This document shows positions 6,052 to 39,297 of a stretch of 41,668 bases of DNA, in pieces. The translations under genes were made by a program, and so were the position numbers. Location: the IMG/VR virus record IMGVR_UViG_3300045988_062043. One strand, 5' to 3'. Each line of letters begins with the position of its first letter. Position 1 is the stretch's first letter. This DNA comes from a virus. The notes beneath the pieces are model-generated. The model did not search any database. It saw nothing but the letters and a program-made list of their open reading frames with translations, and was not told the DNA's origin.

Positions 6052-6054
6052 GCG

Positions 6055-6471: not shown

Positions 6472-6473
6472 GC

Positions 6474-6620
6474 ATGGAGTGTAAATGCGCAAAATGCGGA
6501 GAAGTACGGGAAATCGTCTGTAGAGTAGATGGTGAGCCGTGGTGTGAGGAGTGCTTGGACAAAGCGTTGGGATTGATAGAGGAGGCAAAGCAGGCCAAAC
6601 ATGGACATCGGACTCATTGA
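6474..6620 (+). CDS. Small zinc-ribbon protein (48 aa)
   Basis: MECKCAKCGEVREIVCRVDGEPWCEECLDKAL. Begins 3 nt after the previous stop. Below the track cut-off. Overlaps the next gene by 20 nt. Confidence 0.4.
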   Translation: MECKCAKCGEVREIVCRVDGEPWCEECLDKALGLIEEAKQAKHGHRTH

Positions 6621-8462: not shown

Positions 8463-8516
8463 TTTGCATCCTCCTTTTTTGTTGCCATCGTGAGTTTCGG
8501 GGTGAGATTTCTGTTT

Positions 8517-8768
8517 TTAGATTTCACTTTGCCATGCTTCGAATTTTGCGATCATCGTATCATCTGATACCCTGTAATACTCCACGACAATCCTCAAGTC
8601 CCCGGTCCCAGTGGCGGGCTCAACTTTCTCCCACCAGTCCCAGCCAAAGTCTCCTTGTACGTCCTCCTCGGCGGCTACGTCTACAAGCTTGTCGCTGTAT
8701 GTCTCCTCATAGTTGTACCCGCTCCCGTCAACCCACTCTTTGATCGTGATAACTTCTCTTACTTCCAT
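8517..8768 (-). CDS. Small, highly acidic hypothetical protein
   Basis: 83 aa with 21 D/E versus 7 K/R. RBS GGAGAAGGAGAAGG. Start taken at the internal ATG of track ORF 8517-8975. Confidence 0.55.
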   Translation of the reverse strand: MEVREVITIKEWVDGSGYNYEETYSDKLVDVAAEEDVQGDFGWDWWEKVEPATGTGDLRIVVEYYRVSDDTMIAKFEAWQSEI

Positions 8769-8817
8769 TTTCCTTCTCCTTCTGCCCTCGTAACCTCCGG
8801 GGCGGGACGTTTCTGCG

Positions 8818-9048
8818 TTAATATTGCCAGGTGATTTTTTGCTCGTTGTCCATATCGACCCAAGCAAGTTTATAGGTCTTCTGGAGGTCATCTCCATGAT
8901 AGCCGCTAACCGTGACATATACCCGGTGCTTCCCGTAGTTTTTCCACTCGCGCGCGTCCAACTTGTAGCTGTCATAGTAGCTCATAATTTTTTCCGCTTT
9001 CCCCGTCAGGATCTCGATAGTTCCGTCCGTCAATCCGTATTTCTCCAT
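8818..9048 (-). CDS. Hypothetical protein, first gene of the reverse cassette
   Basis: 76 aa with AGGAGGAGC 6 nt upstream of the ATG. Confidence 0.55.
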   Translation of the reverse strand: MEKYGLTDGTIEILTGKAEKIMSYYDSYKLDAREWKNYGKHRVYVTVSGYHGDDLQKTYKLAWVDMDNEQKITWQY

Positions 9049-9401: not shown

Positions 9402-10110
9402 CCTTTTATCATCTCAAAAATAAGAGGGAAGCCCTCCCACAAAAGTGGGAAGCAAATCCGGTAATTATGCGACAATGGGAGCGTGGGGGCGAATGCCTCC
9501 CGCTCCCTTCCATTTCCTCCTCCTTTCTCATTGCCGGGCCTCCCTCCCGGCAGCGGCACGCAGGCAAAGCCGTAAACCTGCAACATAGCCCGTAAGGGCT
9601 ATATGTCCTTGTAGCTCAGAGGTAGAGCCTGAGGGTTAATAGGCCCTCTAGAGTCGCCGGTTCGAGTCCGGTCGAGGGCACAGAAAACCACGACGCCAGG
9701 TTTACGGAGTGGCGACAATGTCGTCGCTCTACTTTAGAGGCGGACTTGTAGCTCGCTCCAAAGGCCAAGGAGCTGACTGTGGAAAGACACTATACTTGTG
9801 GATCGGGGTCGCTCACCTCGCAAGTAAAATCATTAGCGGCCTGCCAGTAGCCATAGCTGGCCGACTCCGGGCAGAATGGCAGCCTTGAGAGTCAAAACCG
9901 CGCTATCCCGCTGAAAACTGCCGTGAGTACCTGTGCACAGGTCAATGCGGTGTGACAATCTAAGTGGGACAGCGCACATATGCCGCTCCTATCTGCATGA
10001 GGATATGGACGGCCCTATGGATGTGCCCCGAGCTGCGGCGGGTGGCCCGCAGCAAATCAGGAGAGGGCAGACCCCGCTCACCGCCCTCTCCTCAATAAAA
10101 CGAAACCACA
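9402..10110 (+). ncRNA. Candidate large structured noncoding RNA region (class undetermined)
   Basis: ~710 nt without a credible ORF in an otherwise gene-dense genome. Many GC-rich helices can be paired by hand: 9477-9507, 9533-9551, 9587-9600 (GUAA loop), 9843-9861, 9929-9942, 10032-10053, 10061-10090. Confidence 0.45.
9605..9680 (+). tRNA. tRNA-like element with a non-canonical anticodon arm (isotype undetermined)
   Basis: Acceptor GTCCTTG/CGAGGGC (7 bp, 2 G-U). D arm GCTC-AGAGGTA-GAGC. T arm GCCGG-TTCGAGT-CCGGT. The anticodon stem GAGGG/CCCTC closes an 8-nt loop TTAATAGG. Confidence 0.5.
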
Positions 10111-10125: not shown

Positions 10126-10509
10126 ATGGCTGCACGGCTGACGGATAGGCAAAAAAAGAAAATAGTGGCCGATTATCTGGAAACCGAAAGCTATAACGCC
10201 ACAGCGAAGAAAAACGGCGTTTGCGGGCAAACAGTGCGCCGTGTTGTTGAGGAATCTCAAGGAATCACCGAAAATCTCAAACGGAAAAAAGAGGAGAACA
10301 CCGCCGACATCCTGGCCTACATGGACAGCCAGCGGGGCATTGTGTGTGAGATCATCGGTAAGGGACTGGCTGCCCTGAATGACCCGGACAAGCTGGCGGA
10401 GGCCAAACCGGCGCAGATCACCACGGCAATCGGGACGCTGATTGATAAATGGGCGCTCGTCAAGGGCGAAGGGGAAGAGGGCAAGGTGCAGGTGATTATT
10501 GATGTCTGA
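10126..10509 (+). CDS. terS: Terminase small subunit
   Basis: N-terminal HTH (KKIVADYLETESYNATAKKNGVCGQTVRRVV). Position immediately 5' of terL. ATG 10126 has GAGAGGTGG 5 nt upstream (the track start 10117 is GTG). Confidence 0.7.
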   Translation: MAARLTDRQKKKIVADYLETESYNATAKKNGVCGQTVRRVVEESQGITENLKRKKEENTADILAYMDSQRGIVCEIIGKGLAALNDPDKLAEAKPAQITTAIGTLIDKWALVKGEGEEGKVQVIIDV

Positions 10510-27434: not shown

Positions 27435-27788
27435 ATGGGAGGAACAAAATCCAAAGTGTACGTCCTCCTTGACGGGGACAAGATCATCCGCTGCGAGGGC
27501 GGGTATACCATGAGCAACATCCAGGACATTGACGCCTGGACGTACATCGACGAGGGCAGCGGCGACCGCTACAACCTGTGCCAAATCCACTACTTTGACG
27601 GGGGCTTATACACTGACGATGGCATCACCCGGTATAAGCTGGAGGACGGTCATGCAGCAGCACGTACCGATGAGGAGATCGAGGCGGACCGTGCAGCGCT
27701 GCCCAAGCCATGCCCTCCTGACCTTGCGTCTCGCGTGGAAGCACTAGAGGAGATCACAGCAGCAATTGAGAGAGGGCTATCCACATGA
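27435..27788 (+). CDS. Hypothetical tail-fibre-associated protein
   Basis: 117 aa with an AAGGAGG RBS, in the operon context. Confidence 0.5.
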
Positions 27789-29146
27789 GACTAAGAGCAA
27801 CAGGCCAAACGCTGGAGTTAGTAGAGTCTGAACGACTGGTCTCCGGGTCGGTAGAAATCTATACGGCAGCATTTGAGTTTGACGCAGCCTGGGATGGGTA
27901 TGTAAAAACAGCGGTGTTTACAGACGATATGGGCCGCAGCGCTGAGATTGCATTGACAGATAATACATGCACAGTCCCATGGGAAATCCTTCGTGCGGGC
28001 AAGTATATCCATATAGGCGTATATGGAGTAAATGGGGACAAGCGATATCCGACAATTTACACGGCAAATGGTCTCAGGGTTTTTGAGGGTGCATTGCCCG
28101 CAAACCCATCTCAGCCCCCGAGCCCCACAGAGTATGAGCAGCTATTGAGCATGATCGGAGACACAGCGGCCCTTAAAACCACGGACAAGTCCTCTTTGGT
28201 TGCGGCAATCAATGAGATATACCAAGCAGGCGGCGGCGGAAAGTCCGTTACAGATGCTCAGGTAAATGGGGACGGCGACCTTATTATTACTCTGTCAGAC
28301 GGCACCACCATCAACGCGGGGCATGTAGTGGGCGCGGATGGTGCGCAGGGCCCAGAGGGACCTCAAGGGCCGCCCGGCGCGGAAGGAGAACAGGGACCAG
28401 CGGGGCCCAAGGGAGACACCGGGGAGCAAGGCCCGCAGGGGCCGAAGGGCGATACCGGTGCCCAGGGATTGCAAGGCCCAAAAGGAGACCAGGGGGAACA
28501 GGGCATCCAAGGCCCGCAGGGGCCAAAAGGTGACACCGGAGACACCGGCCCGCAGGGTCCCGCAGGTGCGGATGGCGTCGGCCTCCCCACGGTGACCGCA
28601 GAGGACAACGGCATGTATGCGGGCGTGGTGGACGGAGCGTGGGGCAAAGTGAGCGCGCCGGGTGGAGGTGGAGAGTGGACAGCGATCCAAACCTTAACGC
28701 TTACTGAAGAGGTTAGGACCGTTTCGGTCAATATGGACTCCTCCGGCGCAAGCTTTGCCTGCAAAGAGATTTTAATAAGGCAATTCACAACGTGCTCCGA
28801 ATCGTCCATACAAAACATGAGCATATATGTAAACAACTCGCCTGTGATCGGAAACATGCCGATGATCAAAAATACCGGGGGCTATGGTCCTGCTGAGATC
28901 ATGATCAACATTGTTAACGGCAGGGTCAAGGCCGAAGTCATATATGTCGATCGCGTGAAAAGCACGGCGGAATTTGAAACGATTACATTACCCTATAATT
29001 ATGTGCCGAGTACTGTAAACAGCGGAAAATGGATGACGAATATTCCGTTCCTCGACGCAAGCAGTATAACGTCGATCAAATTAGAATGTACTAATTCTGC
29101 GGTTACTTTCGGCATTGGCAGCAAATTTGATATTTACGGGAGGTAA
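27785..29146 (+). CDS. Collagen-like repeat tail fibre
   Basis: 453 aa. 27 uninterrupted G-X-Y triplets flanked by globular N- and C-terminal domains. Confidence 0.75.
28331..28573 (+). repeat. Collagen-like (G-X-Y)x27 coding repeat
   Basis: [82 protein letters not shown]. Confidence 0.9.
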
Positions 29147-29459: not shown

Positions 29460-29783
29460 ATGAAGCATCTGTACGAGTACATCAATGAGATCATGGACAT
29501 CGCCTCCGTCAACCACGCGGAGCCGCAGAACGCCAAGGATATGTTTTTGGCCAACGTCAGGAACGCCGGGGACCCCACGCTGCCCCACTACAGGGGCGCG
29601 GGGAATGTGGACTACGCCGCGCTGGCGGAGGACCTGCCCAGACTGACCCGAGAGGGAGCGGCCCTCACTCAGGCGTTATTTGACCACTACAAGGCGCTGG
29701 TGGAGCTACACAGGGCCGGGCGGTACGCCGAGGCGGTGGAGCTGATGCGCGGGGCTGTGGAGGCGGCTGAGGGCGATGAGTAA
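29460..29783 (+). CDS. Hypothetical protein
   Basis: 107 aa. Upstream of the endolysin gene, with an 8-nt overlap. Confidence 0.5.
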   Translation: MKHLYEYINEIMDIASVNHAEPQNAKDMFLANVRNAGDPTLPHYRGAGNVDYAALAEDLPRLTREGAALTQALFDHYKALVELHRAGRYAEAVELMRGAVEAAEGDE

Positions 29784-31152
29784 GTACGTCGCCTCCATCC
29801 CACTGGGGGACATAGACAGGATACGAATCTACATCAACTCCGGCAAGCTGTCCCTCCGGCAGATTGTGGCCCAGGAGGCGCCAGACCTTGCGATCACGGG
29901 CAACTTCTGGCTCTACGAGACCTACCGCCCCACATGCCCCATCAAGGCTGACGGGAAGGTGCTGGCGACCGACGCATACCACTACCCGGCTCTGATCTGG
30001 GATACCGGGCCGGACATCTCCATGGGCATAATCCCGCCCGGCGGGGCCTGCGGCAAAATGAACTATATTGCAAATGCCGCCGGACTCTACCAGGGCAAGC
30101 CGGAGACCATGTACTGCAAGGCTGACGTGCGCGGCAGACGTGGCCGGACCGGGTGGGGCTTCTGCGGCGGGGCGCTCGCCTTTATCGCCTTCCCGGATGG
30201 GAGCGACGGCATGGAGCCGGAGGAGCTGCGGGACTACGTGCAGGGCCTCGGATGGTCTGACTTCATCATGGGCGACGGCGGACGCAAGGTGAACTATTAT
30301 AACAGATCCACCGGGGATATGGTGCAGGGCCGTGACCCAAGCCAGAATCTGATTTTAGTCTACAAACGTAAGAGGGCCCCATCCGAGCCCGACGACAGCG
30401 ATAAGGAGGACAAGCCTATGAGCACAAAATACACCGTCTGTCTTGACCCCGGCCACGGTCCGGACACGGTCAATGGGTCTCCAGACGGGAGTTACAAAGA
30501 GAGAGAATTTGCCTGGGATATGTATACCCGCATCCGCCCACTGTTGGAACGGCATGGCGTCAATGTGATCTGCACCAGGACGGATGACACCAAGCCCAGT
30601 CTGACCGCCCGTTGCGAGGTGAGCAACAAGGCGGGAGCGGACCTGTTTGTCTCTCTGCACTCCAACGCCGATGGCGGCTCCGGCTGGGGGACGGCGCGGG
30701 GGCTGCTGGTCTATACCTCCAGCGGGCCCATGACGGCCAAGCGCAATGTGGCTGCCACTGCCATTGTCAACCGGGCCCATGAGGCGGGGGTATTGCTCCA
30801 CGGGAGCGGCGTCGCCCACCAGATCGAGTACACGGTGCTGGCAAAGACCGACGCACCCGCCGTGCTCATCGAGTATGGATTCCACACCAACCAGGAGGAC
30901 ATTGGTCTGCTGAAAGACAGCTCCTACCGGGACAAGCTGGCAGAGGCCACGGCAAAGGGCGTGTGCGACTTCCTGGGCATCGCCTGGACGGCTGAGAGTG
31001 GCGGGGATGGCACAGATATCCCAGCAGCCGATTGGGCCGCTGAGGCGTGGCAAAAGGCCAAGAGCAATGGTGTCATGGACGGCACCCGGCCTACAGAACC
31101 GATTACCCGGCAGGAGCTGGCCCTGGTGCTGGACCGGCTGAATTTGATTTGA
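29776..31152 (+). CDS. Multidomain endolysin: N-terminal phosphodiester-glycosidase-like (DUF2233/NAGPA-like) domain, Amidase_3 domain, and a C-terminal SLH-like tail
   Basis: 458 aa. The central Amidase_3 signature is VCLDPGHGPDT...ADLFVSLHSNA...EYGFHTN. The N-terminal 200 aa has ITGNFW...GRTGWGF...IMGDGG. The C-terminus is GVMDGTRPTEPITRQELALVLDRL. Confidence 0.75.
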   Translation: MSKYVASIPLGDIDRIRIYINSGKLSLRQIVAQEAPDLAITGNFWLYETYRPTCPIKADGKVLATDAYHYPALIWDTGPDISMGIIPPGGACGKMNYIANAAGLYQGKPETMYCKADVRGRRGRTGWGFCGGALAFIAFPDGSDGMEPEELRDYVQGLGWSDFIMGDGGRKVNYYNRSTGDMVQGRDPSQNLILVYKRKRAPSEPDDSDKEDKPMSTKYTVCLDPGHGPDTVNGSPDGSYKEREFAWDMYTRIRPLLERHGVNVICTRTDDTKPSLTARCEVSNKAGADLFVSLHSNADGGSGWGTARGLLVYTSSGPMTAKRNVAATAIVNRAHEAGVLLHGSGVAHQIEYTVLAKTDAPAVLIEYGFHTNQEDIGLLKDSSYRDKLAEATAKGVCDFLGIAWTAESGGDGTDIPAADWAAEAWQKAKSNGVMDGTRPTEPITRQELALVLDRLNLI

Positions 31153-31166: not shown

Positions 31167-31445
31167 ATGGATATTACTGAGCTCGGCATTGCGGCGCTGC
31201 CCGCGATCACTGTCATCTGCCTGCTGGTGGCCCAGGCCGCCAAGGCCACGGCGCTGGACAACAAATGGCTCCCGGTCATCTGCGGTGCGGTGGGCGGTGC
31301 GCTGGGTGCGCTGGCGATGCGCATCATGCCGGATTACCCGGCGCAGGATTACATCACCGCCGTTGCAGTTGGCATCGTCTCCGGTCTCGCGGCAACCGGC
31401 GTCAATCAGGTTTATAAACAGCTCACCGGAGGTAAGGAGGGCTAA
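31167..31445 (+). CDS. Holin
   Basis: 92 aa with 2-3 TM segments and the tail GIVSGLAATGVNQVYKQLTGG. GGAGGT lies 7 nt upstream. An in-frame ATG at 31152 gives a possible 5-codon-longer form. Confidence 0.7.
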   Translation: MDITELGIAALPAITVICLLVAQAAKATALDNKWLPVICGAVGGALGALAMRIMPDYPAQDYITAVAVGIVSGLAATGVNQVYKQLTGGKEG

Positions 31446-31448: not shown

Positions 31449-31700
31449 ATGGAGTGGACCACAGTAACAGTGATTATCGCCCTTGTGGGCCTTGGGGCGG
31501 CAATTATTAAGCCGATTGTATCACTCACGAGGTCCATTACTGAGCTGACAATCCAAGTCAAGGGGCTACGTACCGATATGGATAAGCAGACCGAGCACAA
31601 CCGAGAAATCCACAAACGCCTGTGGGACCACAATGATGAGCAGGATGACCGGCTGGATGACCACGAGCGGCGGATCGGCTCCCTGGAGCACAAAGCATGA
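31449..31700 (+). CDS. N-terminal-TM coiled-coil lysis accessory protein
   Basis: 83 aa. TM segment TVTVIIALVGLGAAII, then a charged coiled coil. AAGGAGG RBS. Confidence 0.5.
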   Translation: MEWTTVTVIIALVGLGAAIIKPIVSLTRSITELTIQVKGLRTDMDKQTEHNREIHKRLWDHNDEQDDRLDDHERRIGSLEHKA

Positions 31701-31760: not shown

Positions 31761-32006
31761 GTGGGAGCGCACGTTAACATGCCCGAAACCCTGAAAAATC
31801 TATTGCGGTCGGAGATTGAACAGGCAATTTACCAGGCGAATCTCGGGAAAACAGACACCGGGATAGCGCAGAGGTATTTGATAGAGCAAATACCTCAAAT
31901 TGATATCGCAGCAGAATACGGGTGCGAGCGCTCCACAATATCAAGACGACTTCTGCGCATCATTGATAAGGTCGAATCGACTGCCCAAAGGCTAAATTAC
32001 ACATAA
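31761..32006 (+). CDS. Sigma-70 region-4-like HTH protein
   Basis: IAQRYLIEQIPQIDIAAEYGCERSTISRRLLRIIDKV is a region-4-type HTH. GTG 31761 has GAGGGAG upstream, with ATG 31779 as an alternative start. Confidence 0.55.
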   Translation: MGAHVNMPETLKNLLRSEIEQAIYQANLGKTDTGIAQRYLIEQIPQIDIAAEYGCERSTISRRLLRIIDKVESTAQRLNYT

Positions 32007-32025
32007 TTTCACAAAACACGCACAC

Positions 32026-32064
32026 GCCTTCACTGGATTGCCACCCAGTGGAGGCGATTTTTTT
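32026..32064 (+). terminator. Strong intrinsic terminator ending the late/lysis operon
   Basis: GCCTTCACTGG-ATTGCCAC-CCAGTGGAGGC (11 bp, one G-U), then GATTTTTTT. Confidence 0.8.
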
Positions 32065-32090
32065 GTATAGTAAAGGCAGAGGTGATCCTT

Positions 32091-32321
32091 ATGGGAAACG
32101 AGCTGATAACACGGCTTATTAACTGCGGATTCTCCGAGCCAAATGCCAGAGATATCTATTACCGGTATTATATTTGCGGAGATTTTGATGGACTCGAATC
32201 CTTTTTGTGCGCAAATGAGAGCATAAAAATAAAAGCAAATGCTCAAATCTCAACTGCGGAGAAAAATGGAGAATGGGAAGATATATCAAATACAATGCAA
32301 ACCCAGACGGAAAAAATGTAG
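32091..32321 (+). CDS. Hypothetical protein (island gene A)
   Basis: 76 aa with GAGGTGA 5 nt upstream. AT-rich segment. Confidence 0.45.
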   Translation: MGNELITRLINCGFSEPNARDIYYRYYICGDFDGLESFLCANESIKIKANAQISTAEKNGEWEDISNTMQTQTEKM

Positions 32322-32665
32322 GGGACTGCACAGTCAGAGCAATTTCTACAGCGCTTGACCAAAGCTGGGAAGAAACCTACATTGGATTAGCTCTCCAGGG
32401 GTTTTTGATGGGCGATCTTCCCTCAGCAAATTCTGTATGGGGGGCCTATCTCAGGTCTAAAGGCTTTGTACGCCGTATTGTGCCGGATACTTGCCCAGAC
32501 TGTTACAACGTGTCTGATTTTGCAGAGGAACATCCGGATGGTACATATATTTTAGCTCTGTCAGGCCATGTGGTATGTGTCAGGGACGGGAACTGGATCG
32601 ATACATGGGATTCTGGTGGTGGAGTCCCGTTATATTACTGGTGCGAAAGAAAGGATGAATCTTAA
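32273..32665 (+). CDS. Putative papain-fold cysteine peptidase-like protein (island gene B)
   Basis: 130 aa. GDCTVRAIS (Cys), SGHVVCV (His) and IDTWDS (Asp) occur in the order expected for a C-H-D triad. Overlaps gene A by 49 nt in another frame. Confidence 0.5.
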   Translation: MGRYIKYNANPDGKNVGDCTVRAISTALDQSWEETYIGLALQGFLMGDLPSANSVWGAYLRSKGFVRRIVPDTCPDCYNVSDFAEEHPDGTYILALSGHVVCVRDGNWIDTWDSGGGVPLYYWCERKDES

Positions 32666-33160
32666 ATGGCATTTGCTCAACCCTATTTTGGCGGCTATCA
32701 GCCTGGGTATTATCAACCCCCTATGCCGGATCAGCTTGCGCAACTGCGGCAGAATCAATTCCAGCCAATCGCGCAGCCCGTAGTACAGCCGCCCCAGATG
32801 CAGCAGCCTCCGCAAAATCAGCCCGCATCCAACGGGATTATCTGGTGCCAGGGGGAAGAAGGCGCAAAAGGATTTTTGGTTGCGGCGGGCAATAGCGTGA
32901 TGTTGATGGACAGCGAGTCCAGCACGTTTTATATCAAGAGCACCGATGCGTCAGGCATGCCACAACCGCTGAGGATCTTCGACTATACCGAGCGCACAGC
33001 CACACCTAAAATTGCGACTCCGGCCAATATGCCCCCCAATGTAGAGTTTGCTACAAAAGCGGAGGTTGAGGCCCTGGCGGCTCGTTTAGACGCTCTGACA
33101 AGCAAAGATACTGCCAAGCCCGCGAAAAAATCTGCGAAGGAGGATACAGATAATGCCTAA
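32666..33160 (+). CDS. Q/P-rich hypothetical protein (island gene C)
   Basis: 164 aa. N-terminal QP-rich low complexity, a conserved-looking core GIIWCQGEEGAKGFLVAAGNSVMLMDSESSTFYIKSTDASGMPQPLRIFDY, and a helical tail. Confidence 0.6.
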   Translation: MAFAQPYFGGYQPGYYQPPMPDQLAQLRQNQFQPIAQPVVQPPQMQQPPQNQPASNGIIWCQGEEGAKGFLVAAGNSVMLMDSESSTFYIKSTDASGMPQPLRIFDYTERTATPKIATPANMPPNVEFATKAEVEALAARLDALTSKDTAKPAKKSAKEDTDNA

Positions 33161-33380
33161 TCCGCTCTTTTCTATGCTCGGAGGCAATATGCCCTCTATG
33201 CCTGGCCCAATGGGTAATTTTGCACAGATGATGCAGCAGTTTCAGCAATTCCGGGCGAATTTCCAGGGGGACCCGAAAGCAGAGGTGGAAAAACTGCTGC
33301 AATCCGGAAAAATGAATCAGAGTCAGCTCAACCAATTGCAGAATATGGCGAGACAATTTCAGCAGCTTATGCCCAAATAA
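33153..33380 (+). CDS. Small M/Q-rich hypothetical protein (island gene D)
   Basis: 75 aa with a strong RBS GAAGGAGGA 8 nt upstream. QQFQQFRANFQGDPKAEVEKLLQSGKMNQSQLNQLQNMARQFQQL. Confidence 0.6.
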   Translation: MPNPLFSMLGGNMPSMPGPMGNFAQMMQQFQQFRANFQGDPKAEVEKLLQSGKMNQSQLNQLQNMARQFQQLMPK

Positions 33381-33451
33381 GGCTATAATCGTGGCCACGA
33401 TTTAATATAGCAACCTTAAAATTATTTTGTAAATGCGAAAGGAGACTACAT

Positions 33452-34195
33452 ATGTCTTTGAGTTCTGATGGTACTGTGATGACCATGCCTGTTGCACCCA
33501 CCAATATGGGCGGAAACGGCTTCGGCGGCTTTGGCGGAGATGGTGCGTGGTGGATTATTATCCTGTTTTTGTTTGTTTTCTGCGGCTGGGGCAACAACGG
33601 CTGGGGCGGAAATGGTGGCGGCATGAACGGCGGCGTCGGTTCTGAGGTCCAGCGCGGATTTGACCACTCCTCCGTTGTAACCAAGCTGGACGGCATCACC
33701 CAGGGTATTTGTGACAGCACCTATGCCCTTAACAACGCCATCAATACCGGCTTCTCCAATGCGGAACTGTCCCGGTGCAATCAGCAGTCGGCCCTGATGC
33801 AGCAGCTCAACAATATGGCTATGCAGGCTCAGAACTGCTGCTGCGAGACCCAGCGGGCGATTGACGGCGTGAATTACAACATGGCAACCAATACATGCGC
33901 CCTCCAGAACACCATGAACAACAACACCAGGGACATTATTGACAATGCCAATGCCAATTCCAGGGCCATCCTCGATTATCTGTGCCAGGATAAGATTTCT
34001 ACTCTCCAGGCCGAAAATCAGAGTCTCCGGCTGGCTGCGTCTCAGGCGAACCAGAACGCGGTACTCCAGGCGGCAATGGACGCAAACACTGCGGAGATTC
34101 TGCGCCGCACCGCACCTCTGCCTGTCCCGGCTTATCAGGTGGCAAACCCCTATACGGGTGTCTATGGAAGCTGCTGCAATCCCTGCGGCTGCTAA
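33452..34195 (+). CDS. Gly-rich single-TM, N/Q- and Cys-rich protein (island gene E)
   Basis: 247 aa with an AAAGGAGA RBS. GGNGFGGFGGDGAWWIIILFLFVFCGWGNNGWGGNGGG is a YjcZ-like tiny-TM motif. Followed by a long N/Q-rich helical region with 12 Cys, ending in GSCCNPCGC. Confidence 0.65.
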   Translation: MSLSSDGTVMTMPVAPTNMGGNGFGGFGGDGAWWIIILFLFVFCGWGNNGWGGNGGGMNGGVGSEVQRGFDHSSVVTKLDGITQGICDSTYALNNAINTGFSNAELSRCNQQSALMQQLNNMAMQAQNCCCETQRAIDGVNYNMATNTCALQNTMNNNTRDIIDNANANSRAILDYLCQDKISTLQAENQSLRLAASQANQNAVLQAAMDANTAEILRRTAPLPVPAYQVANPYTGVYGSCCNPCGC

Positions 34196-34260
34196 ACTGC
34201 ATAACTGCATCTATTTCGTGACATCACGAAATTGTTCGGCCCCGTGCCGATTTTGAACAT

Positions 34261-34292
34261 AGCGGCGGGGCAATGGCCTCGCCGCTTATTTT
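34261..34292 (+). terminator. Probable intrinsic terminator after gene E
   Basis: AGCGGCG-12 nt-CGCCGCT followed by TATTTTA. Flanked by two further perfect hairpins (34214-34231 and 34297-34312). Confidence 0.45.
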
Positions 34293-34332
34293 AACCGCCT
34301 CGAAATCGAGGCATTTAGAAAGGATTGATTTT

Positions 34333-34755
34333 ATGGCTGAGTATACGAATATTGGCCCTGTGACTGTAGCCGCTGGGCAGAATGTGCCCCTTACCGAAAC
34401 TGCCGTATCTGGGGGAAGCTGTATCGTCCATCGTGAAGGAGCTGGCATTGTGACCCTGCGGGGCCAGACTAACCAGTGCCGGGCACGGTACAAAGTGAGC
34501 TTTGGTGGAAACATTGCAATCCCCACCGGCGGGGCCGTGGCTCCGATCTCCATTGCTTTGTCTGTGAGCGGTGAGCCGCTTGCCAGCGCAACTGCAATTG
34601 TAACGCCCGCTGCGGTGGAAGACTATTTCAACGTGTTCACGGCAGTCTTTATCGAGGTGCCGCGTGGCTGCTGTGTGACGGTAGCAGTCGAAAATACCAG
34701 CACTCAGGCGATCAATGTTGCAAACAGCAATCTGATTGCCGAGCGTGTATGCTAA
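34333..34755 (+). CDS. All-beta protein, possible TNF/C1q-like jelly roll (BclA-C-terminal-domain-like) (island gene F)
   Basis: 140 aa. Alternating beta pattern GQNVPLTETAVSGGSCIVHREGAGIVTLRG...YKVSFGGNIAIPTGGAVAPISIALSVSGEPL...VAVENTSTQAINVANSNLI. Confidence 0.5.
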   Translation: MAEYTNIGPVTVAAGQNVPLTETAVSGGSCIVHREGAGIVTLRGQTNQCRARYKVSFGGNIAIPTGGAVAPISIALSVSGEPLASATAIVTPAAVEDYFNVFTAVFIEVPRGCCVTVAVENTSTQAINVANSNLIAERVC

Positions 34756-34772
34756 TGGAGAGGAGAGATATT

Positions 34773-35210
34773 ATGAGCATGAGAGCCTTAGAGGACCTAC
34801 GCGAAATGCTCTGCGACGAGCTGGACGAAATCGCAAAAAAGCAGGAAATGTCCGCAGGCGACCTTGAAACCGTCCATAAACTCACAGACACCATTAAAAA
34901 CATTGATAAAATCATTATCATGGATGAGGATGGTGGCTATAGTCAGGCCGGAGACTGGGAGATGGAGGGCCGTGGCAATTATGGGCGCGGAAGCAGCTAC
35001 GCAAGCCGTGGCAAGCATTATGTAAGAGGCCACTACAGCAGAGATGGCGGAGACTATAGCGAGCGCCACCGCGACAGCATGGGCCGTTATAGCCGAAATG
35101 GGGCAAAAGAGCACATGATGACGCAGCTGGAAGAGATGGAGCGTAACGCCAGTAATGACAAAGAGCGAGATGCAATCCGCCGTTGTATCAACCAGCTAGA
35201 GTCCACCTAA
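34773..35210 (+). CDS. Hypothetical helical protein with an R/G/S/Y-rich centre (island gene G)
   Basis: 145 aa with a GGAGAGGAGAG RBS. MSMRALEDLREMLCDELDEIAKKQEMSAGDLETVHKLTDTIKNIDKI, then GRGNYGRGSSYASRGKHYVRGHYSRDGGDYSERHRDSMGRYSR. Confidence 0.6.
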   Translation: MSMRALEDLREMLCDELDEIAKKQEMSAGDLETVHKLTDTIKNIDKIIIMDEDGGYSQAGDWEMEGRGNYGRGSSYASRGKHYVRGHYSRDGGDYSERHRDSMGRYSRNGAKEHMMTQLEEMERNASNDKERDAIRRCINQLEST

Positions 35211-35225
35211 AAAGGAGGCGGCCAT

Positions 35226-35561
35226 ATGTTGGACGCCAAAGAAATCGACGTAGCAATCGCCGAACTGGAGTATAAAGACTCCAGCTATAGTAACTACGCA
35301 AAGCTGGCAAGCCTCTACACAATCCGGGACCAAATGACCCGGCATGCAGATCGAGGCTATGAGCGGGCCTACTCTGCAGCACCAGCGGCCCTGGAAGAAC
35401 CCACTCGTGTAATCCGGTACGGCGACAGCGACTTTTTGCGGGCCGTGGAGGGCAAAGACCCTGCGGCGGTGTGGGATATCATGGATGAGTTAATGGACAC
35501 GCTCAAAGTAGTCAACACAAGAGTGTACAATAGCGTTATGCGGAAAATAGACGCAGTGTAG
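35226..35561 (+). CDS. Hypothetical protein (island gene H)
   Basis: 111 aa with AGGAGG 7 nt upstream. Confidence 0.55.
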   Translation: MLDAKEIDVAIAELEYKDSSYSNYAKLASLYTIRDQMTRHADRGYERAYSAAPAALEEPTRVIRYGDSDFLRAVEGKDPAAVWDIMDELMDTLKVVNTRVYNSVMRKIDAV

Positions 35562-35563
35562 CA

Positions 35564-35594
35564 AATTAGCCCCAGAAACTGGGGCTAATTTTAT
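35564..35594 (+). terminator. Intrinsic terminator ending the accessory island
   Basis: AATTAGCCCCAG-AAA-CTGGGGCTAATT (12 bp, perfect), then TTAT. Confidence 0.75.
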
Positions 35595-35645
35595 GCGTTA
35601 TATAATATGATTAAACCGCCCGGTTATTATAGATTATACAACGGT

Positions 35646-36950
35646 TCAGATTAAATCAAAATCGGCCACTGAATCGTTGGATAGATAGATCTTTTTGACT
35701 GTTTTGCGCCAAAAAGATTGTTTGCCGTCCCGTGGCAGGTCATCATACAATTGTCTCCAGTCGCCCCAGAAGCGGGATTTTAATGCCTCGATGTCAATAT
35801 CCGGGACATCTTCTGGGATTGCCGCCAGCTCATCATTAAGCGCCCTAAACTGCCTTTTATAATCCTGCATCGAAATCAGATCAGATATATAGAGCTCCGA
35901 CAGCTTGGACAATTTCCGCTGGATCGCGTCTCTTTTGGGCTTGTGCGATATAGCTCTCTGCTCATTGCGGCTAATGATTGATGTCTGTACTTTTGCTTCT
36001 ATGCGGTCCAGCATGTACGCCTCAATTTTCTCTTCATTGTAATTTTTGTTGTTAGAGCATCCAGTCTTTTTCCTGCTAGAACTGCACCCGTAGTAATGAG
36101 TCTCTTTGTGCACTCGTGATACCGAATACCCTCCCAATCGATTACCGCACTTGGGGCAGATTAAGAGCCCGGAAAAGAGATACACCCGGCTTTGTGTCGT
36201 CTTCCGGACGATACATCCACGGAGAGAGTTCGCTTTTCTGTATTCATCCGGAGAAATGATGGCGGGTATTGTTATTCCGGCAAATTTCCCCATGTAAGCG
36301 GGGTTAGAAAACATGTACCGCGCCGAAGTGTACGATAGCCCAAGCTCCGGATATTCCCTAATTACCTTCGAGATTGATCCAGCTTCCAGGTACATATCAA
36401 ACGCGGCGCGGACCATAGGCCCGGTCACCGGGTCAATGACCACCGATTTTCCGTCCAATTTGTATCCTTTTGGTACATTACCAGTTATGGGCTCGTTTCT
36501 CTCTTTCTTACCCTCAAAAACAAATTTAATCCGTTCGCTGGTCCGGTCCGCTTCGTCCTGAGCGACACTGAGCATGATATTAACTTTAAATCTACCGGAG
36601 GCTGTGACCGTTTCGTAGTCCTCTTGTGTAGCTCTCCAAGTAACGTTATGGGCGTCAAGGACACGTTGCACCTCATAATAATCGGAGATATTCCGGAACC
36701 ACCGGTCCAATTTTATGAACAAGACCATATCAATTTTATCGGATTCAATGTCCGCCAATAAGCGCATAAATTCTGGCCGCTTTGTATATCTTTTACGAGC
36801 ACTCTTCCCGGCATCTAAATAGCAATCCACAACTTTCATGCCGTGTCCCTTTGCATAATCTCTTAGGTGGGCTTCCTGCTCATCCATGGACAGGCCGTGC
36901 CTTGCTTGCTCCTCGGTGCTCACGCGGATATATATAGCTGCTCGCGTCAT
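35646..36950 (-). CDS. int: Large serine recombinase (phage integrase)
   Basis: 434 aa. AAIYIRVSTEEQ carries the catalytic Ser motif in a resolvase domain. Recombinase domain, zinc ribbon (CPKCGNRL...YYGCSS...C) and a coiled-coil C-terminus. Confidence 0.9.
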   Translation of the reverse strand: MTRAAIYIRVSTEEQARHGLSMDEQEAHLRDYAKGHGMKVVDCYLDAGKSARKRYTKRPEFMRLLADIESDKIDMVLFIKLDRWFRNISDYYEVQRVLDAHNVTWRATQEDYETVTASGRFKVNIMLSVAQDEADRTSERIKFVFEGKKERNEPITGNVPKGYKLDGKSVVIDPVTGPMVRAAFDMYLEAGSISKVIREYPELGLSYTSARYMFSNPAYMGKFAGITIPAIISPDEYRKANSLRGCIVRKTTQSRVYLFSGLLICPKCGNRLGGYSVSRVHKETHYYGCSSSRKKTGCSNNKNYNEEKIEAYMLDRIEAKVQTSIISRNEQRAISHKPKRDAIQRKLSKLSELYISDLISMQDYKRQFRALNDELAAIPEDVPDIDIEALKSRFWGDWRQLYDDLPRDGKQSFWRKTVKKIYLSNDSVADFDLI

Positions 36951-37389: not shown

Positions 37390-37938
37390 TTATAGCGCTG
37401 CCGGATCGAACTCCATATAGGCAATCGGCGGATCACTGTCAAAGGTGAGCCACTCGCCGATCTCGACCTCCACCACGGAGGTGGTATTGGAGAGGACAAA
37501 TGCTGCTTGTACGTCAATGGTAGTTCCGGGGCGAACCTCCGTCATGAACGAATCAGAATCATAAACGGAGTCGTCCATGATGATGGCGGTTTCCAGCCCA
37601 ACTCCGTCCTGGAATGCAGAACAGGAGACAGCAACCATTGCGCTGGTGGTGTCTTCGCTGTTGTTGGTCCAGGAATATGTGATCGCAATAGCGGGGTTAC
37701 CTTCATAGTCCTCGGTTAAAACAGCGAATTTAATTTCTACTTCATAGTCTCCGAGCGTTGCAATGTTGCTTGACACCTCGGGTTCCGGAGTATCCTGCAC
37801 TTCCTGCGTCTCTTGCGGCTCAGTTTGTGTCGGAGCTGAACTGTTTTGCGGCTCTACACTTTCCCCTGGATCGGATACCGCGCATCCAGAAACCATGGCC
37901 AGCATGGAAAGCACGAGGATTAATGCTATCTTTTTCAT
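37390..37938 (-). CDS. Lipoprotein, DUF5067-like
   Basis: 182 aa. Signal peptide with lipobox MKKIALILVLSMLAMVSGC. LGDYEVEIKFAVLTEDYEGNPAIAITYSWTNNSEDTTSAM...AFQDGVGLE fits DUF5067. Confidence 0.75.
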   Translation of the reverse strand: MKKIALILVLSMLAMVSGCAVSDPGESVEPQNSSAPTQTEPQETQEVQDTPEPEVSSNIATLGDYEVEIKFAVLTEDYEGNPAIAITYSWTNNSEDTTSAMVAVSCSAFQDGVGLETAIIMDDSVYDSDSFMTEVRPGTTIDVQAAFVLSNTTSVVEVEIGEWLTFDSDPPIAYMEFDPAAL

Positions 37939-38074
37939 TTTCTTTTCCTTCTTTCTTCGCTCTATTTTTACCGCCCCGGCGGGTAGGTCACTTATCTTGG
38001 AATGGGATACCGCCGGCTGGTGATGGCCCGGCCTTGGCAGACCAGCGACCGGCCAACATCGGGGCAGGGGATTT

Positions 38075-38464
38075 TTATTTTTCTGGAGTTTTAGCATGAG
38101 CAGATTCATTTTGGGCGATTATTTTTTTAAGCTTTGCGAAACCGACAAAGGAAAGAACCATTTCAATCATCACAAAGAAGAAATATAACGGGAATAAAAT
38201 CATAGCAACAGCGTACAAAACCGCACCAGTCAGAGCAAAACCCCTGTGGTTCATAGTCCATCCTAAGATATTGAAAATGACAGCAAGCCCAGCACAGATA
38301 AGATGCGGGAATACAAGCGCTGTTGCAATGCCTGCTCCGATCGCTTCAGCTCCATCCACGCCGGAATTAGTGCCAGTCCAATAAGAAATGCTGTACAATA
38401 TGTAAGCAATTCCTATCACTGCGGAAATGAGCAACAATACGCTACGCTTTTTCTTTACCTTCAT
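38075..38464 (-). CDS. Integral membrane protein (about 4 TM)
   Basis: 129 aa with an AAGGAGGAAGAGG RBS. Four hydrophobic segments. Confidence 0.65.
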   Translation of the reverse strand: MKVKKKRSVLLLISAVIGIAYILYSISYWTGTNSGVDGAEAIGAGIATALVFPHLICAGLAVIFNILGWTMNHRGFALTGAVLYAVAMILFPLYFFFVMIEMVLSFVGFAKLKKIIAQNESAHAKTPEK

Positions 38465-38766
38465 TTTCCTCTTCCTCCTTATTTTATCCGCACCCTGCGG
38501 CAAAGATGCTACATGATACCACACTAAAAGTCCAATAAACGTCTCTTTTGTTGTTGCCCTATAAATTCTACAGGCTTAACAAAATAGATAGAATTTATTT
38601 GGGAGGTGTGGCTATTGCTTTAATGGAACTAATGTTCTAAAATATAAACCATAGTAAAAGTTCACAAATAGTTCACCATTCACTTATTTACATTTTGTGA
38701 CAATATATGCTAATATAATCCAAAAGAAACATTTTCCAAAAAATAAGTATGGGAGGGCGCAAAAAG

Positions 38767-38906: not shown

Positions 38907-38938
38907 AAGGCCCCGGGGAACCGGGGCCTTATTTTTTT
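38907..38938. terminator. Bidirectional terminator shared by the small ORF and the repressor gene
   Basis: AAGGCCCCGG-GGAA-CCGGGGCCTT (10 bp, perfect), then ATTTTTTT on the + strand. The repressor stop codon lies in the 3' arm. Confidence 0.75.
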
Positions 38939-39297
38939 GTGAAGCCGTCTATCAGTTTTCTGATGGCGGCTTTTTCGTCGTCATCCATAAGCCAATATGC
39001 CTTTATAATCCGCTTAATTAGATCATCGTCTGACATATGAATCCGTTCCATAACTTCAAGGAACTCTTCGTCCTCGTCCTTCTGGATATGAGGCTCGCCT
39101 TCGCCGGTACGCAGCCAAAGCTCAGAGATATTAAATTCTCGGCAAATATCGGCAATGGTGCGGTCGCTGGGCACTTTTTCACCAGAGACTAGCCTAGAAA
39201 TAAAGGACTGCGAAACATTGATTTTCTCTGCAAAAGCGGTCTTTGTTAGTTTGCTGTCCTTTACACACCACGCAATTCTATCATTGATAGCCTCCAC
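38929..39297 (-). CDS. CI-like repressor (XRE HTH)
   Basis: 122 aa. GTG start with GGAGGG 8 nt upstream. LTKTAFAEKINVSQSFISRLVSGEKVPSDRTIADICREFNISELWLRTGEG. Divergent from a strong rightward promoter. Confidence 0.8.
   Translation of the reverse strand: MEAINDRIAWCVKDSKLTKTAFAEKINVSQSFISRLVSGEKVPSDRTIADICREFNISELWLRTGEGEPHIQKDEDEEFLEVMERIHMSDDDLIKRIIKAYWLMDDDEKAAIRKLIDGFTKK

Follow-up and report, generated by a model that had tools for sequence, protein, structure and literature searches.

A conserved operon of gut Clostridia phages that may build a membrane-anchored protein assembly

In the window analyzed here, a 41,668-nucleotide stretch of viral DNA (IMG/VR record IMGVR_UViG_3300045988_062043), eight open reading frames on the same strand, A to H, follow the lysis genes, and we asked whether they form one unit and what such a unit might do. 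The eight reading frames were present as originally predicted, as was the strong terminator after the lysis genes, a hairpin followed by a T-run (Table 1). The description of their products as unassignable was correct for curated collections since none of A to H matched a Pfam, NCBIfam, or PADLOC family; however, B to G each matched a PHROG, all of 'unknown function', with E-values between 9e-9 (G) and 1e-73 (E). The module is bracketed by one upstream and one downstream terminator, and its GC content is below that of the late operon.

Table 1. Positions of the module genes and flanking features in the window.
Feature	Position	Strand	Basis
Small HTH protein, 81 aa, sigma-70-region-4/LuxR-like	31761..32006	+	Sigma70_r4 and PHROG matches
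Intrinsic terminator of the late/lysis operon	32025..32064	+	12-bp stem, 8 GC pairs, T-run
-10-like hexamer TATAGT	32066..32071	+	Directly 3' of the terminator T-run
Gene A, variable small helical protein, 76 aa	32091..32321	+	RBS GAGGTG at 32079-84
Gene B, minimal papain-like cysteine enzyme, 130 aa	32273..32665	+	Triad, model, phrog_3754
Gene C, 164 aa	32666..33160	+	Alignment, phrog_21718
Gene D, 75 aa	33153..33380	+	phrog_22984 at 1e-20; position conserved
Gene E, 247 aa	33452..34195	+	phrog_16490 at 1e-73; alignment
Structured RNA, 86 nt, three hairpins	34207..34292	+	Covariance model, intergenic regions
Gene F, stand-alone TNF/C1q/BclA-CTD-like jelly roll, 140 aa	34333..34755	+	Model, Foldseek, phrog_20016
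Gene G, 145 aa if started at Met9 (frame open from 34749)	34773..35210	+	phrog_28802 at 9e-9; position conserved
Gene H, last module gene, 111 aa	35226..35561	+	Position conserved
Bidirectional terminator, perfect 13-bp hairpin	35564..35594		AAATTAGCCCCAG-AAA-CTGGGGCTAATTT then T
Approximate attP crossover	~35612..35625		Window-versus-prophage identity stops here
Large serine integrase	35646..36950	-	Pfam domains, phrog_95 at 2.5e-102

A synteny survey revealed that the order B-C-D-E-F-G-H was kept in approximately 28 of 34 related loci at 30-80% identity, while the flanking endolysin and integrase were mostly replaced or unrelated. The proposal of a single module was, therefore, right about a co-inherited unit and wrong about its extent, which is B to H rather than C to H. 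We concluded that B to H constitute a conserved operon that is very frequent in phages of gut Clostridia. Its carriers are siphophages of Oscillospiraceae, the hosts belong to Oscillospiraceae/Clostridia, and the module is always located 3' of the genes for holin and endolysin. Hundreds of contigs encode proteins identical to those of this window, and the B and F families each comprise more than 7,900 protein clusters, a lower bound because both searches saturate. Identity across these phages was the highest for F, the most conserved member (57-81%), followed by B (49-77%), G (33-69%), and H (26-56%). A, which has the motif 'xLIxxGxxxxxAxxxxxxY...LExF', is the sole variable member. Recognizable, but divergent counterparts of A are found in approximately half of the loci; A overlaps B by 49 nt and matched no family, including in the PHROG search. 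Homing endonucleases are inserted beside E in some genomes. The variability of A and these insertions are consistent with a grab-bag of unrelated morons that are adjacent by chance; however, this reading is extremely improbable because it is contradicted by the conserved order of seven families over approximately 28 loci with mostly unrelated flanks, and the module has a single promoter-like site, a single internal conserved RNA, and a single closing terminator. The conserved gene order establishes co-inheritance and probable co-function, and does not in itself imply physical assembly.

The upstream boundary is also conserved. A hairpin with a T-run was present at the matching place in nearly all loci, and homologues of the HTH protein or analogous small HTH genes were located 5' of the module in most of them. 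The HTH protein matched Pfam Sigma70_r4 with an E-value of 0.007 and a PHROG 'sigma factor' with 6e-6, and is a candidate regulator. Of 26 loci, 11 had an extended -10 element (TGCGAnAAT type) immediately 3' of the T-run, whereas shuffles gave an expectation of 0.7. The promoter signal in this window consists of the -10-like hexamer only, which we regard as a candidate autonomous promoter of the module.

The genes A to E and F to H are separated by a structured RNA, an uncatalogued element that the earlier reading of this stretch did not include. Its covariance model matched 28-29 loci, solely between E and F, and the window scored 80 bits. Ninety-five percent of the cells in the alignment were paired and 14 of 20 pairs showed compensatory changes, which was reached by 0 of 500 shuffles; the MFE z-score was -4.7, and no Rfam family matched. 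The first hairpin (34213-34232) varies in sequence and covaries, the second (34236-34250) is UCGGC-CCCGU-GCCGA, and the third (34261-34286) forms an intrinsic terminator with its U-run. Judging from its covariation and the terminator at its end, this RNA may be an attenuator or stoichiometry element between the two gene groups. Expression would then be two-tier: A to E from a promoter immediately 3' of the late-operon terminator, and F to H only through read-through of the three-hairpin attenuator RNA.

The closing hairpin was perfect, as predicted; it was not called by a simple terminator scanner because its T-run is short. The neighboring gene is a serine integrase, as expected, with Resolvase (2e-29), Recombinase, and Zn_ribbon_recom domains. 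The crossover was mapped to approximately 35619-35625 by aligning the window to two prophage copies (L051 and L052) in comparison with a circular copy (L053). In integrated copies, the closing terminator lies inside phage DNA, host DNA starts approximately 25-30 nt past it, and the attR end, distant from the integrase, carries the island. Therefore, the premise that the island is integrase-proximal lysogenic cargo reflects the circular map: the module and integrase are adjacent in the circular form only.

The papain-like Cys-His-Asp arrangement proposed for B was borne out. C19, H99, and D110 were invariant in 56 sequences, and in the structural model (pLDDT 93.2) Cys19 caps the N-terminus of a helix. 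Foldseek gave weak matches for the fold (Josephin-2, AvrPphB, and staphopain). B matched phrog_3754 at 7e-30 and is a candidate maturation protease or isopeptidase. No catalytic-looking invariant residues were found in the other module proteins. Since B is missing from distant variants of the module, it cannot be essential to the module core. Low-complexity sequence characterizes C, D, and G. C has a Y/Q/P-rich N-terminus, a conserved core of approximately 55 aa (GIIWVQGEEGAKAYLVAPGNSV.L.DSE...FYIKS.D.SG.P), the helix 'YVTR.EF.AL', and a K/E-rich tail; it matched phrog_21718 at 1e-32, and no Pfam or PDB relative was found. Distant members of this family are encoded by C. perfringens phage CPD1 and bajarodcaudo virus 5. 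D combines an M/Q/P/N-rich N-terminus with a small helical domain, and CPD1_037 and baj_672 are counterparts of similar design. G has helical ends and an R/G/S/Y-rich center; its most likely start is 34773, based on the gene callers in identical copies and the position at which alignments begin. H is presumed to be helical, and CPD1_042 was identified as a distant relative in a profile search (E-value 9e-9).

E contains exactly 12 cysteines and terminates in CCNPCGC, as noted previously. It consists of a conserved leader, a hydrophobic segment flanked by Gly and Trp, N/Q-rich helical repeats, and a C-terminal Cys cluster, and CCC was invariant in the family alignment. E looks like a single-pass membrane protein with a hydrophobic core (IIILFLFVF) that resembles a true membrane anchor, while the topology, suggested by a weak positive-inside signal, may be N-in and C-out. 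No signal peptide or membrane segment was visible in the sequences of the other module proteins.

The original prediction of a TNF/C1q-like pattern in F was confirmed by an AlphaFold model (pLDDT 92.7). Its start was moved from 34273 to Met21 because all homologues are approximately 140 aa; the additional upstream stretch overlays the conserved RNA hairpin. Foldseek searches of the PDB identified F-BclA, BclA, ExsFA, and BxpB (TM 0.70-0.78, E-values of 2e-7 to 3e-6). Exosporium proteins of Bacillus (BclA-CTD, F-BclA, and ExsFA) accounted for each of the ten best PDB matches, with BxpB and ExsF within the top 14. Stand-alone phage proteins of approximately 135 aa were matched in a viral structure library with TM up to 0.92, and F also matched the TNF-like tail or spike knobs of cyanophage A4, phi812, and A-1(L). 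Its relatives formed 644 clusters at 50% identity, and the best 150 of these 644 were single-domain proteins of approximately 75-196 aa. F matched phrog_20016 at 4e-64 and presumably forms a trimer.

We tentatively prefer the explanation, which we consider possible rather than probable, that B to H, with optional A, are a self-contained operon building a membrane-anchored, cysteine-crosslinked protein assembly. The flanking terminators, the extended -10 of other loci, the lower GC content, and the attR position are consistent with an autonomous unit. E would enter the cytoplasmic membrane via its hydrophobic segment and display the N/Q-rich helical stalk with CCC and the Cys cluster. F, a BclA/ExsF-type trimer, may serve as a globular docking or cap unit, while adaptor or matrix functions would fall to C, D, G, and H. 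B may mature or trim one module protein, potentially E at its conserved N-terminal leader. Against this assembly, signal peptides are lacking in F, C, D, G, and H, whereas most of E is predicted to be outside the membrane; contact would therefore require that E faces the cytoplasm or that the membrane has been breached. The weak topology signal of E, the absence of B from distant variants, and the bare -10-like hexamer of this window also weigh against it.

The same lack of signal peptides and membrane segments is what cytoplasmic assembly into the virion predicts. The module may be a virion accessory or ejection module, in which F would form a trimeric knob or decoration, E would be a fiber shaft or a particle-carried membrane-inserting ejection protein, and the remaining proteins would act as adaptors or chaperones. 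We consider this to be unlikely. The phage knobs among the matches of F are consistent with it, as are the E-like gene of crAss-like phages, which carries the annotation 'viral fiber/spike' and adjoins virion genes, and a C-like partner in a Bacteroides phage, which weakly matches a PHROG 'virion structural protein' family. E also shows a marginal similarity to HEF2/HA2 (E-value 6e-4) with a fusion-peptide-like organization. However, the structural operon and the module have the entire lysis cassette plus a strong terminator between them, the matched PHROGs are all of unknown function, the distribution is accessory and patchy, F is markedly more conserved than is usual for receptor-binding parts, and the core of E looks like a membrane anchor.

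The location of the module after the holin and endolysin genes, the membrane segment of E, and a prophage-end site typical of exclusion and defense cargo are consistent with superinfection exclusion, defense, or anti-defense, or with an egress accessory to the lysis cassette. In one version of the egress explanation, E is spanin- or fusogen-like: it resembles an i-spanin in outline because a coiled coil and Cys residues accompany its N-terminal membrane segment, and it has the marginal HEF2 similarity. However, the defense alternative of the original prediction received no support from PADLOC, and the family searches identified no effector domains, whether nuclease, NTPase, or other. Seven genes, mostly free of membrane segments and rich in low complexity, are unlike known exclusion or spanin systems. 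Moreover, the hosts are monoderm, the module has no lipoprotein partner, and the lysis cassette is already complete with an amidase, a Hol44 holin, and a membrane coiled-coil protein, which we take to resemble XhlA in outline. We regard this group of roles as doubtful, with a low probability.

The best PDB matches of F raise the possibility of spore-surface lysogenic conversion, in which the mother cell would express B to H during sporulation and incorporate the products into the spore coat or exosporium, with E as a Cys-rich basal element and F as an ExsF/BclA-like unit. The absence of signal peptides suits mother-cell assembly, the hosts are Oscillospiraceae/Clostridia, the island is at a prophage end with its own terminators, and the Cys-, Gly-, Q-, and R/Y/S-rich composition presumably recalls coat proteins. 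However, the spore idea of the original prediction was weakened because it rests on likeness in fold and composition: no spore-coat or sporulation family matched by sequence, including the YjcZ/tiny-TM and GerQ models, and receptor-binding knobs of phages and proteins of giant viruses also commonly have the TNF fold. The extended -10 that forms the conserved promoter-like element is of the sigma-A type, and no recurrent sigma-E or sigma-K type motif was seen by eye at the module loci. Furthermore, a C-D-E-F' variant is carried by bajarodcaudo virus 5, which encodes its own DNA polymerase, has no annotated integrase within 18-58 kb, and is probably virulent. We consider a spore-specific role to be unlikely. 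The role of the preferred membrane-anchored assembly is most likely phage-centered, with action at the envelope either during lysogeny or late in infection, as suggested by the bajarodcaudo variant and by the E loci with partner sets described below. The E family extends to crAss-like and Bacteroides phages, to Methanomassiliicoccales viruses, and to C. perfringens phages, which also argues against a spore-specific role. In crAss-like phages and phages of non-sporulating Bacteroides, E is followed by an analogous partner set, namely, a beta protein, a small beta-plus-helix protein, and an R/Y-rich protein, while viruses of gut methanogens (Methanomassiliicoccales) carry E alone.

The seven genes B to H of the island, together with the terminators that bracket them, are a syntenic operon. 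A scan with gene F yielded 34 loci (one genome per species), the majority of which were contigs of ~40 kb binned with Oscillospiraceae/Clostridia MAGs. In tblastn searches with the window proteins, the order B-C-D-E-F-G-H was found in ~28 of the 34 loci. Identities to the window were 57-81% for F, 49-77% for B, 33-69% for G, 31-56% for E, 29-64% for C, 36-72% for D, and 26-56% for H. The endolysin and integrase of the window had no counterpart in most of these loci by the same search. The B-H order was also kept in Dulem virus 33 and in prophages on contigs of up to 179 kb. The original prediction that the island contains one co-functioning module therefore holds as far as one syntenic unit is concerned; however, the unit extends from B to H and not from C to H. 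Families occurring independently and without synteny would have pointed to a collection of unrelated morons. This was clearly not the case, and the conserved synteny of seven families makes such a collection extremely improbable, to the point that we regard it as essentially excluded.

The B and F families each comprised more than 7,900 clusters at 90% identity, numbers at which the searches saturate, and the exact window proteins were present on hundreds of contigs. The source names of exact and near-exact copies were all "hypothetical" or "uncharacterised", with no functional name among them. A literature search on the PHROG ids of the module, prophage, Oscillospiraceae, and exosporium found nothing relevant. 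PHROG already lists the module families, all with unknown function, and the fold of F is likewise known. New here are the finding that these genes form a unit, the scale of that unit, the distribution of E across phyla, and an RNA element between E and F. Few uncharacterised gene sets of human-gut Clostridia prophages are as frequent as this module.

The window is a complete temperate siphophage genome, circularly permuted, and its landmarks are listed in the table below. The terminator ahead of the island, the eight plus-strand ORFs, and the closing hairpin of the original prediction were all present. Genes F and G were also real, but their starts required correction. The start of F was moved to 34333, which gives a protein of 140 aa; its homologues are all of this length, and the 60 codons upstream overlap a conserved RNA hairpin. 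The start of G is most probably 34773, as called in identical copies. Gene A, which is small and overlaps B, is genuine but variable, and is an optional neighbor of the module. The GC content was 0.48-0.54 in the module and 0.55-0.62 in the adjoining late genes. A tRNA-like gene of undetermined identity with a four-base anticodon (aata) was detected at 9605-9681 by ARAGORN.

Coordinates of features in the window and, where a locus is named, in related loci
Feature	Position	Strand	Remark
Early and replication genes	~1-9,000		followed by packaging, head, and tail genes
Tail-fibre-like protein	27785-29146		collagen triple-helix repeat region (Pfam Collagen, E 3e-15) and C-terminal beta-rich domain
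Amidase_3 endolysin	29776-31152		lysis cassette
Hol44-type holin	31167-31445		lysis cassette
Small membrane/coiled-coil protein	31449-31700		lysis cassette
Small sigma-region-4/LuxR-like HTH gene	31761-32006		precedes the terminator ahead of the module
Terminator	32025-32064		12-bp hairpin and T-run
-10-like element	32066-32071		TATAGT
Gene A	32091-32321	plus	overlaps B
RNA element	34207-34292	plus	three hairpins, between E and F
HP1	34213-34232		sequence varies among loci, pairing kept
HP2	34236-34250		UCGGC-CCCGU-GCCGA
HP3	34261-34286		GC-rich stem and U-run, intrinsic terminator
Closing hairpin	~35564-35594		perfect 13-bp hairpin, closes island
Large serine integrase	35646-36950	minus
DUF5067 lipoprotein and multi-pass membrane protein	37390-38524	minus	between integrase and CI repressor
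CI-type repressor	38929-39297	minus
Homing endonuclease beside E	L001 8959-9510	minus	Dulem virus 33
Homing endonuclease beside E	L043 4044-4667		CPD1
Homing endonuclease beside E	L047 3006-3626		C3_41T2LP

Identical copies of H were found on two bacterial contigs of 373 and 63 kb, in which host genes directly follow the island (PNPase and ribosomal protein S15 on one, hydrolases and ABC transporters on the other). A contig of 41.8 kb has the integrase after H, as does the window. Since the integrated copies carry host DNA after the island, the window represents the circular form. A base-by-base comparison with two integrated copies (L051 and L052, around 10390-10400) placed the attP crossover at ~35612-35625. 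The shared sequence stops at ~35619-35625, which is ~25-30 nt past the closing terminator and ~20-25 nt before the integrase stop codon, and beyond the crossover the chromosomal surroundings of the same phage differ between the two integrated copies. The prophage of the lysogen carries the island as its terminal block at attR and the integrase at the opposite end. In another prophage lineage (L037-L042, 11322-11798), the module adjoins a 158-aa ORF with sigma-70 regions 3 and 4 only, and trmK and other host genes come after this truncated sigma-factor ORF, which suggests that the lineage integrates into, or beside, a sigma-factor gene.

The genes for the DUF5067 lipoprotein and the multi-pass membrane protein are a second, conventional site for lysogen-expressed, possibly exclusion, genes. 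For the island itself, a defence module had been proposed as an alternative. However, no PADLOC model matched A-H or the upstream HTH gene at E<=0.1, and Pfam and NCBIfam scans of A-H also returned nothing significant. We consider a role of the module in exclusion, defence, or egress to be distinctly doubtful.

Almost all loci have the same arrangement upstream of the module: a small HTH gene is followed by a strong terminator and, at once, by a -10-like element. A strict extended -10 (TGnTAnnnT, often TGCGAnAAT) was located directly 3' of the T-run in 11 of 26 loci, against 0.7 in shuffles. This conserved element is sigma-A-like, and the pattern suggests an autonomous promoter of the module. 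The terminator palindrome occupies the place expected of a -35 or activator site and is thus a possible point of action for the HTH protein (31761-32071). No CATA---TA-type sporulation promoter motif recurred upstream of B in the loci inspected by eye. Within the module, a perfect palindrome, ATCGTGGCCACGAT, is located in the D-E spacer (33381-33451), along with a TATAAT that comes directly after the stop codon of D; this could be an internal promoter or operator. The D-E junction of Dulem virus 33 bears a 0.7-kb insertion.

The gap of 137 nt between E and F contains the RNA element, which consists of three hairpins (HP1, HP2, and HP3) and is followed by an RBS (GAAAGGA) and then the F start codon. 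A covariance model built from 25 copies found the element in 28-29 loci at scores of 52-88 bits, always on the coding strand and in the E-F gap only, with none elsewhere at a comparable score. The window copy scored 80 bits (E ~1e-18), and its folding z-score was -4.7. In the model-fitted alignment, which favours the structure somewhat, 95% of the cells were standard pairs and 14 of the 20 pairs were changed on both sides, with covariation in all three helices. None of 500 shuffles reached any of five measures, and slid controls gave only 37-55% pairing. MAFFT/RNAalifold alone overlooked HP1 because its arms were out of register, and the covariance model recovered it. The covariance model did not find the element in distant variants of the module. 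Every Rfam match was far under its threshold, the best being Xoo2 with 18.6 bits against 45.

We read the element as an attenuator or stoichiometry device, with A-E upstream and F-H reliant on read-through. An alternative role is the processing or stabilising of the mRNA. An antiterminator formed by the HP2 loop (GCCCCG) and the HP3 5' arm (CGGGGC) was considered. However, the HP2 loop is unconserved in approximately one third of the loci, so this pairing was not adopted, and no antiterminator pairing common to every locus was found. In two loci (L011 5800-6000 and L014 4965-5157), an additional small ORF is located between the RNA element and F and takes the RBS that normally serves F. Read as an attenuator or otherwise, the three-hairpin element is a candidate new cis-regulatory motif that is directly testable by reporter fusions.

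Gene F was predicted to be a TNF/C1q-like all-beta protein. The AlphaFold2 model, obtained from 51 diverse sequences, was all-beta (pLDDT 92.7, pTM 0.83) and exhibited the ten-stranded antiparallel jelly-roll of the TNF/C1q superfamily. Foldseek returned 115 PDB matches at E<=0.001. The best were F-BclA and BclA, through their C-terminal domains, and the stand-alone proteins ExsFA, BxpB, and ExsF (E 2e-7 to 3e-6, TM 0.70-0.78, 10-15% identity, probability 1.0), followed by TNF-family cytokines (EDA and 4-1BBL), C1QL1, and knob domains of phage tail/spike proteins. The likeness is thus established at the fold level. At the sequence level, however, F had no Pfam/NCBIfam match at E<=1 and did not belong to BclA_C, C1q, or TNF, and a search of its profile against PDB sequences found nothing. 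In the viral library, F matched uncharacterised stand-alone proteins of ~135 aa from sipho-, podo-, and myovirus metagenome contigs (TM <=0.92). The family comprised 644 clusters at 50% identity, the best 150 of which were single-domain proteins of ~75-196 aa; three distant relatives (P0225, P0257, and P0246) sit on contigs of 1.5-2 kb. That the module products are accessories of the virion appears rather unlikely to us. The collagen-repeat tail-fibre-like protein of the window varies in length among sister-phage copies (414-447 aa), and any tie between this fibre and the BclA/ExsF-like F is speculation.

Gene B had been proposed to encode a papain-like enzyme. C19, H99, and D110 were invariant in sets of 21 and 56 sequences, as were G17, D18, W112, and S114. 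In the model of B (pLDDT 93.2), Cys19 opens the helix of residues 19-28. A nucleophile Cys at the start of a helix is a hallmark of papain-like enzymes, and B has both the Cys-His-Asp order and the helix N-terminal Cys of the clan CA triad. Foldseek matches were weak, with none at E<=0.001: Josephin-2 (E 0.024, probability 0.96, TM 0.54) was followed by AvrPphB, staphopain, and TssM (E 0.16-1). None of 21 members matched Pfam, and B fell into no curated peptidase family (C39, C1, NlpC/P60, and others); a PDB sequence search also found no match. The most apt description of B is a divergent, minimal papain-like enzyme. It may be a peptidase, an isopeptidase, or a transferase, and transglutaminase- or acyltransferase-type chemistry may also be built on this fold. 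We considered B as a transglutaminase-like crosslinker of the Q-rich proteins C, D, and E and the K-rich tail of C, and Foldseek returned no transglutaminase fold match.

E is a Cys-rich, membrane-anchored protein whose viral family is widely distributed. The family alignment (24 members) revealed a conserved leader, a Gly/Trp-flanked hydrophobic segment, an invariant CCC, and a terminal Cys cluster, along with N/Q-rich helical repeats that vary in number and the near-invariant motifs SQ..Q and P.P.AY. The N-terminus had been regarded as YjcZ-like. However, E and its 24 family members had no Pfam/NCBIfam match, the YjcZ and tiny_TM_bacill models included, and the likeness is compositional only. 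Basic residues tend to come before the hydrophobic segment, and the homologue in an archaeal virus has an 80-residue N-terminal extension without a signal peptide; on these grounds, we weakly infer an N-in, C-out orientation. The E-family profile matched influenza D/C HEF2 over the fusion-peptide-proximal 110 residues (E 6e-4). This match is marginal and composition-prone, and so we treat it as a lead only. PDB sequence and profile searches with B, C, E, and F found nothing beyond it, and scanning the members of the B, C, and E alignments one by one against Pfam did not reveal a consistent family.

Low-complexity sequence is prominent in C, D, and G. C unites a Y/Q/P-rich N-terminus and a K/E-rich tail with a conserved core (~55 residues) and an amphipathic helix. 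In D, a small helical domain accompanies M/Q/P/N-rich sequence; the centre of G is rich in R/G/S/Y; and H is helical in appearance. For C, D, G, and H, no relative turned up in Pfam, NCBIfam, the PDB, or PADLOC.

Locus-derived profiles detected families of the module outside the Oscillospiraceae phages: bajarodcaudo virus 5 gave matches to E and C, the crAss-like phage cr53_1 to E (5e-61), and the C. perfringens phage CPD1 and its relatives to E (1e-53), C (1e-7), and H (2e-6). The CPD1 genes run C-like, D-like, HNH endonuclease (an insertion), E-like, a Cys-rich beta protein of another kind, a small ORF, and H-like. CPD1 was reported with an integrase, and its close relative CPP8 without lysogeny genes (PMC13203459). 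In bajarodcaudo virus 5, the order is holin, endolysin, membrane coiled-coil protein, small HTH, C-like, D-like, E-like, and a beta protein. This virus encodes a DNA polymerase and a helicase of its own; the 40 kb inspected carry no annotated integrase.

With the crAss E-like query, tblastn detected members of the E family in two Methanomassiliicoccales viruses (annotated as phrog_16490 in one of them), Bacteroides phage C3_41T2LP, and numerous crAss-like phages. Comparable partners come after the E-like gene in both cr53_1 and C3_41T2LP: a beta-rich protein, a small beta-domain-plus-helix protein, and, third, either a small R/Y/D-rich protein or a DUF7841 protein whose tail is R/G/Y-rich. The DUF7841 protein is gp67 of cr53_1, which adjoins the E-like gene there. 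For the beta proteins that follow E in the C. perfringens, rodent, and crAss variants, an Ena/DUF3992-like identity was considered and dropped; Pfam gave no match. The E-like gene of cr53_1 and its neighbor (L045 4644-6016) contain in-frame TAG codons, consistent with stop-codon reassignment. HNH/I-HmuI-type homing endonucleases adjoin E in three unrelated phages.

[quoted passage not shown] This breadth favours a phage-centred function, and points to one tied to the anaerobic gut life of the viruses and not to one host envelope. It is also the main argument against a spore or Gram-positive-envelope role. The resemblance of the module products to spore-coat and exosporium components had been raised in the original prediction, and the conversion of the spore surface would mean that common prophages remodel the transmission stage of abundant commensals. 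However, no Pfam/NCBIfam sporulation family matched A-H, the conserved upstream element is of the sigma-A type, and E relatives occur in viruses of non-sporulating hosts. At the level of sequence, membership of the spore coat or exosporium was not borne out, and we consider spore-surface conversion to be unlikely.

Our leading interpretation, which we hold tentatively, is that the products of B-H would assemble into one membrane-anchored, disulfide-stabilised structure. B would be the maturation enzyme of this assembly, and expression would be two-tiered, with A-E expressed upstream of the RNA element and F-H by read-through. Export signals are absent from F, C, D, G, and H, whereas most of E may be extracytoplasmic, and this is a real difficulty for any assembly model. 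The structure may act at the envelope level, in the lysogen or in late infection.

We also speculate, as a fairly improbable extension, that the module is the Oscillospiraceae form of an unrecognised multi-protein system in Firmicutes and Bacteroidota gut viruses, with E also in methanogen viruses. Its parts would be a membrane-inserting, HA2-like, Cys-rich stalk (E, phrog_16490), a jelly-roll partner, and low-complexity adaptors. The system would build a new virus-encoded envelope or extracellular structure, for example a machine for fusion or egress, or a matrix for protection or attachment that is hardened by oxygen. In the Oscillospiraceae lineage, control of the system would fall to a cis-regulatory RNA of a new class. 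The chance that the module is a really new virus-encoded system is, in our view, similarly low. Seven families shown as one operon provide experimenters with a defined unit for deletion and expression, along with two confident folds and a candidate protease.

The individual components have counterparts in known systems. Terminator-containing leader attenuators resemble the RNA element in that two conserved hairpins precede a GC-rich terminator with a U-run before the next RBS. However, the element is inside an operon and not in a 5' leader, has no universally kept antiterminator pairing, and belongs to no Rfam family. F shares the jelly-roll fold of the Bacillus exosporium proteins BclA-CTD, ExsFA, BxpB, and ExsF (PDB 1wck, 7r1m, 8d02, 9h3d, and 9h38) and, similar to ExsFA and BxpB (~140-170 aa), is a stand-alone protein with no signal peptide. 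In contrast to BclA, its 140 aa contain no repeats, and the N-terminal anchor-plus-collagen-like GXX repeat region is absent. It also differs from the exosporium proteins in being phage-encoded, with relatives in podo- and myovirus metagenome contigs, and in having no Pfam match. B shares with the minimal clan CA enzymes (Josephin, YopT/AvrPphB, and staphopain) the Cys...His...Asp order, the Cys at a helix N-terminus, and a conserved Asn upstream of the Cys. However, B is only 130 aa long, its best match is weak, and it has no Pfam/NCBIfam family.

E resembles class I fusion subunits (influenza HA2/HEF2) and phage i-spanins (Rz) in its Gly-rich hydrophobic segment, long helical region, and conserved Cys. 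Class I fusion proteins are characterised by a cleavage-exposed fusion peptide, a heptad-repeat hairpin, and a C-terminal membrane anchor; unlike HA2/HEF2, E has no C-terminal membrane segment in its sequence. In contrast to Rz, E has no o-spanin partner, no lipobox protein being seen among A-H, and its Oscillospiraceae/Clostridia host lineage is one that we take to be monoderm.

As a whole, the module resembles prophage-end morons and lysogenic-conversion cassettes (Hendrix-type, and the Gram-positive toxin cassettes after lysis genes) in its post-lysis place at the attR end, its bracketing terminators, its promoter-like element, and its GC content below that of the late operon. Both terminators are present in the window, and the promoter-like elements are enriched across the loci and weak in the window itself. 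However, the module has no recognisable toxin, enzyme, or exclusion function. It differs further from morons in comprising seven strictly syntenic genes with a candidate internal regulatory RNA, and in having variants in phages of apparently virulent type.
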